A DNA stretch of 64,000 bases. Source: a virus. A model generated the notes under the pieces. It saw nothing but the letters and a program-made list of their open reading frames with translations, did no database searches and had not been told where the DNA came from. How positions within the stretch are numbered: the first letter of the stretch is position 1; each line of letters opens with the position of its first letter. The position numbers and the translations under genes were made by a program. The DNA is taken from the UHGV virus genome UHGV-0242533; one strand, 5' to 3'. Positions 12,334 through 12,436 of the stretch are shown here, in pieces.

Positions 12334-12436
12334 ATAGCCCTTGTGTTTATCAGAGGGCTATGTGAGGGTGTTCCTCATTAACTTATTAATTCAGGCATAT
12401 GCCACACCGCTAGGGAGAGCTTGCTCGAACATCCGG
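12334..12436 (+). promoter_or_regulatory. conserved intergenic element A (hairpin ATAGCCC/GGGCTAT + TGTGAG, then GCTAGGGAGAG...CTCGAACATCCG block)
   Basis: Matches element B at 16583-16692 with a compensatory change in the internal stem (GAGC/GCTC versus GAGG/CCTC). Confidence 0.5.

Follow-up and report, generated by a model that had tools for sequence, protein, structure and literature searches.

Paralogous copies of a structured RNA domain in the early operon of a phiEco32-like coliphage

phiEco32 and 7-11 are the reference phages of a group which has its own sigma factor, and host RNA polymerase reads their early genes into very long polycistrons with intrinsic terminators inside. The transcription study of 7-11 described long polycistronic early transcripts, and its authors concluded that an antitermination strategy must exist, one as yet undefined that 'remains to be defined' (PMC8948821). 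Here we ask what is specified by two similar sites in a 64 kb window, the whole stretch of DNA analysed (64,000 nucleotides), which represents a phiEco32-like Kuravirus, a coliphage. Both sites fall in intergenic gaps and have the sense orientation with respect to the early operon. The original prediction had described them, at 12334-12436 and 16583-16692, as a repeated element in which a terminator-like hairpin and the word TGTGAG precede a stem-loop with an altered stem, and all of the words it quoted are found at those positions. The element is indeed present twice, as a covariance model run with filters off detects exactly two copies in the window. Exact matches to GCTAGGGAGAG occur in the window only at 12409 and 16662 and to CTCGAACATCCG only at 12424 and 16681, while ATAGCC followed by GGGCTATGTGAG is observed only at 12334 and 16583, with zero occurrences expected from shuffled sequence. 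At these two positions the phage encodes paralogous copies of a structured RNA domain which had not been described before.

Fold and covariation of the two modules

Each site constitutes the 5' half of a module of ~200-300 nt in which hairpins A, B, C, D, E and F occur in the same order in both copies. Similarity between the copies runs ~100-150 nt further 3' than originally described, across hairpins E and F. All positions given below refer to the (+) strand.

In copy 1, RNA folding predicts hairpin A (AUAGCCC...GGGCUAU) at 12334-12361, beginning 10 nt past the stop codon of the ORF at 12106-12324, followed immediately by hairpin B (GUGAGG-GUGUU-CCUCAU; 12362-12378), of which the TGTGAG word forms the 5' arm. 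Mini-hairpin C (GGC-AUAU-GCC; 12394-12403), paired in all cells, directly adjoins hairpin D (12404-12439), a predicted fold which matches the covariance model over its full length with 45 bits. Hairpin D consists of an outer stem (12404-12409 with 12434-12439), a 5' loop strand CUAGGGA (12410-12416), an inner hairpin (12417-12426) and a 3' loop strand GAACAUC (12427-12433). Just 3' of D is an AGA trinucleotide (12441-12443), identical in 30 of 30 distinct sequences. Alifold analysis of 15 copy-1 sequences identifies hairpin E (12473-12496), a 10-bp stem with a UA-GGGG-UA cap in which the stem covaries (AU/GC/GU and CG/UG/UA) and the loop is invariant. Alifold also identifies hairpin F (12508-12535), with a 12-bp stem, the same UA-GGGG-UA cap and no U tract, in which eight stem pairs covary strongly, again below an invariant loop. 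Copy 1 additionally carries two exact TAGGGGTA words 37 nt apart. An intrinsic-terminator-like hairpin with a U-rich tail was detected by the terminator scan at 12600-12633, between the copy-1 module and the gene at 12678-12854. In phiEco32 its counterpart is placed beyond two extra genes, indicating that this terminator has no fixed place in the family.

In copy 2, hairpin A (UAUAGCCUUC-UUCG-GAGGGCUAUG) is placed by folding and alignment at 16582-16605 and hairpin B (UGAGUUA-UUC-UGACUCA) at 16606-16622, pair 46-54 of the latter being UA or CG. Mini-hairpin C (CCC-GUAU-GGG; 16646-16655) is predicted by folding and shows covariation, and hairpin D (16657-16696) matches the covariance model with 93-95 bits, its outer stem formed by 16657-16662 with 16691-16696, its loop strands CUAGGGA and GAACAUC located at 16663-16669 and 16684-16690 and its inner hairpin at 16670-16683. 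RNAfold, duplexfold and alifold predict a long-range helix, P0, which brackets the C-D region, with a 5' strand (UAACCU..UCUUAA..AUAUUU) at 16625-16645 and a 3' strand (AGAUAU..UUAAGA..AGGUUA) at 16699-16719, the latter beginning with the invariant AGA (16699-16701). Compensatory differences in P0 are observed among the 7-11, L026, pSal01 and L040 versions. P0 was considered for the family definition and rejected, since its support is limited to the copy-2 and 7-11 types, with none for the copy-1 type or the CVT22-like contig described below. Downstream, a segment at 16704-16745 resembles the antisense strand of the Escherichia coli nrdD 5' leader and includes TTATCCACA at 16717-16725. Hairpin E (GAUAU-UGGGUA-AUAUC, then UUUUUG; 16726-16747), predicted by folding, is deleted in phage 7-11. 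Hairpin F (GACUCUU-UUCG-GAGAGUC plus U6; 16760-16785) is an intrinsic terminator by the terminator scan, precedes the gene at 16804, is annotated as a terminator in phages 7-11 and SU7 and has a covarying stem.

The arm sequence of hairpin A is retained in copy 1, copy 2 and the 7-11 type, with covariation in the distal stem pairs, and the equivalent of hairpin B in copy 2 and 7-11 pairs GAGUUA with UGACUC or UAACUC. The description of hairpin A as terminator-like holds for its shape and not for its function as an intrinsic terminator: it lacks a U tract, being followed by the GUGAG of the 5' arm of B, and the terminator scan was silent at this position though it reported the hairpins at 12600 and 16760.

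The universal core of the family is mini-hairpin C, with 3 bp, and the directly adjoining hairpin D. The 7x7 internal loop of D (CUAGGGA opposite GAACAUC) is invariant, the variants across the family conforming to CUAGGG(A/C) opposite (G/A)AACAUC, while the stems which flank it are wholly replaced yet still paired. The inner stem change which first drew attention to the element, GAG(C)/(G)CUC versus GAGGA/UCCUC, does preserve pairing; in addition, the outer stem covaries (ACACCG/CGGUGU versus CCGAUG/CGUCGG), as does the mini-hairpin just 5' (GGCAUAUGCC versus CCCGUAUGGG). The proposal of a selected RNA structure or paired protein-binding site is borne out by covariation across 30 distinct sequences from four lineages, in which standard pairs occupy 87.7% of pair cells, compared with 28-44% when the partners are slid, and changes on both sides are observed in 9 of 16 pairs. 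In mini-hairpin C, two of the three pairs switch between C-G and G-C across the family, whereas UAU is invariant in the RUAU loop. Overall, ~30 nucleotides are invariant, concentrated in loops between fully replaceable stems.

One pair of positions in the D loop covaries without Watson-Crick pairing, occurring as A:G (n=17), C:A (n=11), A:A (n=2) and never as C:G (n=0), and it switches even between near-identical phages, for example 7-11 and SeKF_80. These three combinations, with C:G missing, are what would be expected of a trans Hoogsteen/sugar-edge pair adjoining a helix. The 7x7 loop is probably a loop-E-like stack of non-Watson-Crick pairs, the last of which is of the sheared type, A:G or C:A. 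With the loop counted as non-canonical pairs, hairpin D would comprise 16-20 stacked layers. The U-G wobbles on the (+) strand would be A-C mismatches on the opposite strand, which indicates that the transcribed (+) strand is the one that folds. A micro-ORF conserved between the two copies was not found across the element, as the short ORFs present differ between them in both frame and sequence, the frame shift resulting from a 4-nt length difference in the inner hairpin.

Distribution and conservation of the family

Homologues occur in Kuravirus, Suseptimavirus, relatives of Salmonella phage 7-11 and a distant CVT22-like contig (L043). Two copies are present in every Kuravirus and Suseptimavirus genome examined and one each in the 7-11 relatives and L043, and the element is in the sense orientation and intergenic in all four lineages. 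A model built without L043 and without the copy-1 type regains both at full length, with 64 bits for L043 and 40-47 bits for the copy-1 type, whereas chance pattern hits score 14-22 bits with a local match only. Neither a 21-base loop pattern applied to viral, metagenome and genome collections nor a relaxed 18-base pattern applied to viral contigs returned anything beyond the known groups and L043 except chance hits of 8-22 bits, in which neither the outer stem nor hairpin C is present. Against Rfam 15, the whole window yielded tRNA-Arg alone at the gathering threshold, and the two intergenic regions searched with E up to 10 gave only noise (Phe_leader, 17 bits against a threshold of 55; mir-1284, 20 against 80).

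Distribution is patchy outside these groups. Among 80 loci around the COOH.NH2-ligase gene, six matched, all of them in the already known Kuravirus/Suseptimavirus and 7-11 genomes, and the other 74 gave no significant match; the element is absent within ±10 kb of this gene in Privateer-like, Aeromonas-type and LUZ24-like contigs. It is also absent from the whole CVT22 genome, and a search for relatives of the 446-aa protein of L043 returned CVT22 alone.

The modules are conserved at least as well as the adjacent genes, with identities to SU7 of 81-88%, compared with 60-77% for neighbouring genes, and to 7-11 of 70-73%, compared with 58-63%. The window lacks phi32_112/111 and phi32_92, gene content flanking the modules varies among close relatives, and the genes 3' of the element are unrelated between lineages. 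A phage protein which co-occurs with the element in all lineages was not found: the early regions of the window and 7-11 have only an endolysin-like protein and a phi32_99-like regulator in common, and neither was seen in the 8 kb of L043 covered by the comparison.

Candidate roles for the element

The reading which we favour, with a probability of roughly 0.3, is that the element acts in the nascent RNA on host RNA polymerase and controls terminator read-through, as the put RNAs of phage HK022 do. The element would be synthesised within the long early polycistron by host RNA polymerase initiating at the sigma70 promoters at ~5.7-6.1 kb; a host macromolecule would recognise the surface of the C-D core, the likeliest candidate being the RNA polymerase which had just passed it; and the module would set the extent of transcription past the intrinsic terminators of the early operon, following the logic of the put RNAs without homology to them. 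We infer the action in cis, RNA polymerase as the partner and antitermination as the output. The promoter scan detects strong sigma70 promoters in the window only at 5732-6084, the terminator scan places an intrinsic terminator at 16760, directly 3' of copy 2, and the earliest exact phage-sigma promoter word on the (+) strand is located at 36550, so that the genes 3' of copy 2 need read-through. The lack of a phage protein co-occurring with the element is consistent with the put precedent, as put RNAs, ~70 nt with two stem-loops containing bulges and present twice per genome, need no phage protein (PMC9378689). The element is a concrete, conserved and small candidate for the undefined antitermination strategy.

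Several observations argue against antitermination. The terminator-like hairpins detected by the scan at 7928, 9256 and 9286 are all 5' of the first module, so polymerase would have to pass them unmodified. Unlike put and nut sites, which are promoter-proximal, the modules are separated from the promoters by 6-10 kb. No nearby terminator follows copy 1 of phiEco32 or the element of L043, and the put region of HK022 is dissimilar. Finally, the element is missing in relatives with the same transcription layout, namely CVT22 and, within ±10 kb of the COOH.NH2-ligase gene, the Privateer-like, Aeromonas-type and LUZ24-like contigs, suggesting an accessory rather than an essential role.

A tentative alternative is that a stable small RNA is released from the early transcript, with hairpins A and B capping the upstream mRNA, the C-D core acting as a protein-binding or stabilising handle and a variable 3' portion as the effector, namely the anti-nrdD stretch in copy 2 and, in copy 1, the pair of GGGG-capped hairpins, by which a host factor could be titrated. 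As in small RNAs, the 3' end of copy 2, of 7-11 and of some copy-1 versions is an intrinsic terminator followed by a U tail, the E and F stems of copy 1 covary beneath invariant UA-GGGG-UA caps, and the spread of the element is patchy and accessory-like, in a region concerned with host takeover. Unexpectedly, the segment at 16704-16745 has one chromosomal match in 5423 of 5426 E. coli genomes, on the opposite strand and directly upstream of the start codon of nrdD, the host anaerobic ribonucleotide reductase gene. Copy 2 thus contains a 38-42 nt stretch antisense to the nrdD leader, with pairing predicted at about -10 to -50 from the AUG. An 18-nt core, CUGUGGAUAACCUGUUCU, is kept in a second enterobacterium, and the Kuravirus copy-2 and 7-11 versions are each a single transition away from its complement with G-U pairing retained, while the pSal01 and L040 versions contain more differences. 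Background is low, as copy 1 gives no match to E. coli even at E=10.

Neither copy 1 nor L043 shows host complementarity, which weighs against a released RNA, as does the partial sequestration of the anti-nrdD stretch in helix P0. Promoter-like words within the modules are not conserved: the sole sigma70 match in copy 2 is weak (CTGACT-18-TATATT, 9/12) with no counterpart in 7-11 by eye, the scan shows nothing promoter-like around copy 1 of the window, of phiEco32 or of SU7, and the gp36 phage-sigma word tAATGTAtA is absent near either module. The similarity to nrdD could also reflect captured host DNA or a shared site for a DnaA-type protein, and the role of the invariant C-D core would be left unaccounted for. 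A second host RNA, E. coli tmRNA, includes the exact complement of GCUAGGGAGAG. Pairing with tmRNA was rejected as a function, since 11 of 30 variants have a C in the middle of the word and a compensating change inside the element itself.

It is rather unlikely that the element is a processing or stability site of the early transcript, cut by a host RNase in hairpin D or in the A/U-rich stretch between B and C, so that A and B would protect the 3' end of the upstream mRNA and C-D would cap the 5' end of the downstream one. The position right after a stop codon between cistrons in all lineages, the several copies per early operon and, in the copy-1 type, the A/U-rich linker between hairpins are what such a site would have, and since downstream genes vary by lineage the role appears positional rather than gene-specific. 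The RNase III sites of T7 are likewise built of a stem, a conserved internal loop and a second stem, a likeness to D which we count in favour of processing. However, counting Watson-Crick pairs alone gives D just 9-13, a short helix for RNase III, whose T7-type sites comprise about two helical turns of mostly paired RNA; the 16-20 layers given above include the 7x7 loop. In copy 2 and 7-11, folding predictions place the A/U-rich linker in a helix, P0. Loop invariance, including C and the trailing AGA, goes beyond the usual needs of RNase III or RNase E, and host RNases are universal, yet only a few phage groups have the element.

We consider it improbable that the modules form a 'handle plus effector' system which moves between unrelated enterobacterial phages. 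The copy-2 module would then be a phage regulatory RNA built on a new scaffold, the C-D core, that binds a host factor, its antisense segment silencing, or being titrated by, the nrdD leader, and the effector of copy 1 would be its GGGG-capped hairpins.

A catalytic or ligand-sensing core is very improbable, whether a self-cleaving ribozyme or an aptamer which decides terminator formation through the three-way junction made with P0 in copy 2 and 7-11. The ~30 invariant loop nucleotides between replaceable stems, the covarying non-Watson-Crick pair and the succession of junction and terminator in those two types suit such a core, but the Rfam search gave no ribozyme or riboswitch match with E up to 10, unrelated downstream genes are atypical for riboswitches, the P0 junction receives no support in the copy-1 type or L043 and an alternative antiterminator pairing was not found.

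Least probable of all is a site acting as DNA, be it for protein binding, replication origin function or recombination that shuffles early gene cassettes, because the stems change on both sides with pairing kept and many (+)-strand G-U pairs, U22-G53 of 20 among the 30 sequences being one example, would turn into A-C mismatches if the other strand or a cruciform were the active form, and this in spite of differing gene content on either side of the modules among close relatives and of TTATCCACA, a perfect DnaA-box word, exact in all copy-2 and 7-11-type sequences. This word is accompanied there by what we take to be the flanks of high-affinity oriC boxes. Its absence from copy 1 and L043 identifies it as an add-on outside the shared core, which it leaves unexplained.

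Comparison with known systems

Copy 2 resembles the 3'-UTR-derived and phage- or prophage-encoded small RNAs of enterobacteria in ending at an intrinsic terminator and in having conserved complementarity to the leader of a host mRNA, here that of nrdD; the element in general shares with them an accessory position in a host-takeover region. The complementarity in copy 2, at 38-42 nt, is of the cis-antisense kind whereas known small RNAs use a short seed, and the shared core has no counterpart among them. If a released RNA proves to be the correct reading, the nrdD match would suggest that the nucleotide metabolism of the host is the target of this phage RNA.

With the early RNase III sites of T7 the element has in common an intercistronic location, multiple copies within an early operon read by the RNA polymerase of the host and a hairpin in which a conserved internal loop separates two stems. 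Its stems are much shorter than those of the T7 sites, and the invariant hairpin C and trailing AGA are extra features. At the level of the loop, D resembles loop E and tandem sheared G-A motifs, which are symmetric internal loops with invariant purine-rich strands, while its sequence is, we presume, unlike the consensus of either 5S rRNA loop E or the sarcin-ricin loop. Whichever role is correct, the element constitutes a well-supported new structured RNA family, and its clear non-Watson-Crick covariation makes it suitable for structural study.

The putL and putR sites of HK022 are likewise structured RNAs encoded in cis, within an early phage operon that the host RNA polymerase transcribes, and present as two paralogous copies of similar fold per genome. 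The put RNAs bind the zinc-binding domain of the RNA polymerase beta' subunit and suppress termination in cis independently of protein factors. They too are stem-loops with internal loops and non-canonical pairs, the internal loops being functionally important in put, have no dedicated phage protein partner and occur in early transcripts which must pass terminators. Sequence and architecture are different. A search of HK022 24000-40751, a sparsely annotated range which should include the early region and both put sites, with model R1 and filters off gave a best score of 10.9 bits (E 0.48). put consists of two long stems and a triplex, compared with a 3-bp mini-hairpin and one hairpin with a 7x7 loop in the element, and is located just downstream of promoters, whereas the element begins 6-10 kb away (12334 and 16582 versus 5732-6084), with the terminator-like hairpins at 7928, 9256 and 9286 coming first. 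Should the element indeed bind RNA polymerase, it would join put as another way, unrelated to the first, of achieving antitermination by RNA alone.

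Genomic setting and architecture of the element

The region 11500-17500 is matched at 93–96% identity by ~100 phiEco32-like coliphages, including MN03 and phiEco32 (megablast), and represents an early gene cluster composed of small plus-strand ORFs and one tRNA-Arg (anticodon UCU; 13283-13359, ~850 nt 3' of copy 1). The original prediction of a structured intergenic element present twice was confirmed, all of the words it quoted being found at 12334-12436 and 16583-16692, which correspond in phiEco32 to the spacers separating gene 113 from 112 and gene 91 from 90. Exact matches to the 11-mer GCTAGGGAGAG and the 12-mer CTCGAACATCCG are confined to these two sites, the composite pattern describing hairpin A occurs twice versus zero times in shuffled sequences, and a covariance model run with filters off detects the two copies and nothing else in the window.

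RNA folding of the plus strand gave an identical hairpin order in both copies, consisting of hairpins A and B, an A/U-rich linker, mini-hairpin C and hairpin D. Hairpin A is closed by AUAGCC and GGCUAU, and the TGTGAG word that was predicted to accompany it is present but actually constitutes the 5' arm of hairpin B. The 3-bp hairpin C reads GGC-AUAU-GCC in copy 1 versus CCC-GUAU-GGG in copy 2, and the outer stem of D ACACCG/CGGUGU versus CCGAUG/CGUCGG; D further contains a 7x7 internal loop, in which CUAGGGA faces GAACAUC, and an inner hairpin variable in length and sequence. The element is larger than originally described, as alignment of all versions extends the similarity 3' across two more plus-strand hairpins, E and F. 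In the copy-1 type, the stems of E (12473-12496) and F (12508-12535) covary strongly under identical, invariant UA-GGGG-UA caps, while F of copy 2 (16760-16777 plus U6) is a canonical intrinsic terminator as detected by terminator scan. In copy 2 and in Salmonella phage 7-11, the core formed by C and D is predicted to fold into a three-way junction with a long-range helix, P0 (16625-16645 with 16699-16719 in copy 2), which is not general. Nucleotides that do not vary in any lineage are UAU(G) of the C loop, G-CUAGGG-n-GAG, CUC-n-AACAUCCG and the AGA following the outer stem.

Gene content varies around the modules. The window lacks phi32_112/111 (3' of copy 1; 12325-12680) and phi32_92 (5' of copy 2; 16120-16570), both present in phiEco32. 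Gene-content breakpoints thus adjoin the modules, which may serve also as recombination joints. Directly 3' of the early promoters, ~920 nt (6085-7005) contain no plus-strand ORF of at least 35 aa, a stretch that could hold additional non-coding elements; a comparable 1.3-kb stretch without genes is observed in phage SU7 (2779-4117). In phage 7-11, 712 nt just after gp135, a phi32_112-like gene, are without an annotated gene (7072-7784), and the matching stretch of SeKF_80 is annotated with tiny ORFs only. Separately, ORF 9264-10058 contains tandem 9-nt periodic repeats at 9450-9723 encoding Gly-X-Y triplets, a collagen-like segment in an early-region protein.

Distribution, conservation and covariation

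Copy-1 type sequences were detected in 99 phage records and copy-2 type in 104 (blastn), the latter including phage 7-11 and relatives, members of a different virus family, at 72–75% identity. The 7-11 element is syntenic: a gene for a phi32_92-like membrane protein precedes it and an annotated terminator follows. Scanning of viral, metagenome and genome collections with a 21-base loop pattern recovered further Kuravirus/Suseptimavirus and 7-11-like variants, plus one distant copy in L043 (JBOFGJ010000684.1; 48,681 bp, or 48.7 kb), a contig binned as a Flavobacterium MAG whose genes indicate a CVT22-like podophage. Pattern matches lacking the outer stem and hairpin C, scoring 14–22 bits in local mode only, were attributed to chance. 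The L043 element lies between small sense-strand ORFs and has a wholly different outer stem (AAUAGCG/CGCUAUU) and a CCC-AUAU-GGG hairpin C, with the loops unchanged. L043 appears to be the entire genome of a CVT22-like enterobacterial podophage, probably mis-binned as Flavobacterium. It also encodes an Srd-like sigma70 decoy as well as a protein of 446 aa with 41% identity to CVT22 gp67, and its G-rich loops, AUAUGUAGGUGUAG and CAGGGGUG, resemble the copy-1 E/F caps.

Carriers form four groups only, Kuravirus and Suseptimavirus with two copies each and the 7-11 group and L043 with one. The element was absent within 10 kb of the COOH.NH2-ligase gene in >70 other related viral contigs, including Privateer-like, 82–90 kb Aeromonas-type and LUZ24-like genomes, and from the whole CVT22 genome, and a relaxed pattern scan of viral contigs yielded no additional element. 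Isolated carrier phages infect E. coli, Shigella or Salmonella, and the nearest isolated relatives of L043 infect Citrobacter, Klebsiella or Erwinia. No phage protein common to all lineages was found; the early regions of the window and 7-11 have in common only an endolysin-like protein and a phi32_99-like regulator, neither of which was seen in 8 kb of L043. The distribution across families suggests that the element spreads by horizontal transfer and depends on a host factor. Nucleotide identity with SU7 is 81–88% for the modules versus 60–77% for neighbouring genes, and with 7-11 70–73% versus 63% for the best-conserved nearby enzyme gene and 58% for the common regulator gene. The protein encoded just 3' of copy 2 retains only 41% amino-acid identity in the SU7 group.

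A model of C and D comprising 67 positions was aligned to 37 matches, 30 of them distinct. Standard pairs occupy 87.7% of pair cells versus 28–44% when partners are slid by 1–3 columns, a comparison in which structure is favoured by fitting the alignment to the model. Both sides change in 9 of 16 pairs, and the covariation score exceeded that of all 500 shuffles. Pair type varies, for example, at columns 21-54 (AU, CG or GC), 20-55 (GC or AU), 18-57 (CG, UA or AU), 34-41 (GC, CG or AU) and 7-16 (CG or GC). A control model from which L043 and all copy-1 sequences were left out still recovered L043 (64 bits) and the copy-1 type (40–47 bits), both at full length. The selected RNA structure or paired protein-binding site originally proposed from one compensatory stem change is therefore supported, and the proposal should be extended. 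A U22-G53 wobble is present in 20 of the 30 sequences and G-U pairs are numerous in A, B, E and F; since these would be A-C mismatches on the opposite strand, the folded strand is the transcribed strand.

Among the 30 distinct sequences, the position that ends the 5' loop strand and the one that begins the 3' loop strand combine as A:G in 17, C:A in 11, A:A in two and C:G in none. Both A:G and C:A occur within the Kuravirus copy-2 group, 7-11 has C:A versus A:G in the almost identical SeKF_80, and the state differs between copy 1 of Kuravirus and of Suseptimavirus. Thus, the double change happened, or was retained, several times. Such a pattern would be expected if a sheared (trans Hoogsteen/sugar-edge) pair stacks on the inner helix and, with the neighbouring G:A and G:A, the loop may form a continuous non-canonical helix.

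Known signals did not account for the element. Rfam gave no match, the phage-sigma promoter word tAATGTAtA (PMC8948821, PMC4331800) was not found at the modules, and no similarity was seen in the early region of HK022, where putL and putR should lie. Matches to a sigma70 promoter within the modules are weak and not conserved, and a micro-ORF was rejected as frames differ between copies. The structured RNA family is thus real and well supported, and apparently undescribed; its members lie in the early operons of phiEco32-like and 7-11-like phages and of one CVT22-like phage.

Similarities to host sequences

The copy-2 module has one chromosomal match in 5423 of 5426 complete E. coli genomes (blastn). 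Positions 16704-16745 (TTTTAAGAGCAGGTTATCCACAGATATTGGGTAATATC) are 86–95% identical to sequence immediately 5' of the nrdD start codon (1197-1240 of the E. coli sequence L046), on the strand opposite nrdD, so that the phage sense RNA would be complementary to the nrdD mRNA leader at ~-10 to -50. The background is low, as the copy-1 module gave no match to E. coli genomes even at E=10. An 18-nt core, CUGUGGAUAACCUGUUCU, is also located just 5' of the nrdD ribosome-binding site in a second enterobacterium (L130, 1169-1186) with an NrdD of 94% identity. A single transition that would retain G-U pairing separates the Kuravirus copy 2 version, and likewise that of 7-11, from the complement of this core; pSal01 and L040 versions differ more. 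Part of the stretch is the 3' strand of P0, which also overlaps a perfect DnaA-box word, TTATCCACA (16717-16725; ~19180-19188 in 7-11), kept in all copy-2 and 7-11-type modules. This word lies inside GGTTATCCACAG, the 11-mer of the high-affinity boxes of oriC. In the literature consulted, no DnaA box was found described for the nrdDG leader. An antisense effector, captured host DNA and a shared protein site are all possible readings of the stretch.

The E. coli K-12 ssrA tmRNA contains CTCTCCCTAGC (L135, 434-444), which is exactly the reverse complement of the invariant GCUAGGGAGAG. Coincidence is the probable explanation, as complementarity is broken by the frequent C variant, for which the compensating change lies within the element rather than in tmRNA.

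Transcription context and proposed role

Three strong sigma70 promoters at 5732-6084 agree with published work, in which early promoters are confined to the beginning of the cluster (PMC8948821, PMC4281155). Plus-strand terminator-like sites occur at 7928, 9256, 9286, 12600, 14861 and 16760. A terminator always lies 3' of copy 2 and of the 7-11 copy and also follows copy 1 of SU7 and of the window; none follows phiEco32 copy 1 or the L043 copy. The most likely single reading, to which we assign a probability of about 0.3, is that of a nascent-RNA element acting on the transcribing polymerase. Fold, strand, conservation and distribution are demonstrated by the data above, whereas we infer that the core would present a recognition surface for a host macromolecule and that the output would be control of terminator read-through. 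Against this, terminator-like hairpins come before the first module, the modules are distant from the promoters, an adjacent terminator is not universal and the element is missing from relatives whose layout is the same.

A released small RNA or sponge is a tentative possibility that would account for the nrdD match and the accessory distribution, as well as for the 3'-end terminator and for paralogues that differ in their 3' parts. Somewhat less probable is a processing or stability site, which fits the intercistronic position and stem/loop/stem shape, but the stems are short and the invariance excessive for this role. The concentration of invariant nucleotides in loops and the P0 junction of copy 2 and 7-11 would suit a ribozyme or riboswitch, a reading made very improbable by unrelated genes 3' of the element and the restricted occurrence of P0. 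Least probable is a DNA-level site, as the G-U pairs are strand-specific.

Control of read-through by nascent RNA would have a setting in phage 7-11, whose early transcripts are long polycistrons spanning almost half of the genome, with an antitermination strategy that 'remains to be defined' (PMC8948821). The known precedent for RNA-only antitermination is provided by the HK022 put RNAs, which are ~70 nt in length, form two stem-loops with bulges and non-canonical pairs, exist as two similar copies and do not require a phage protein (PMC9378689).
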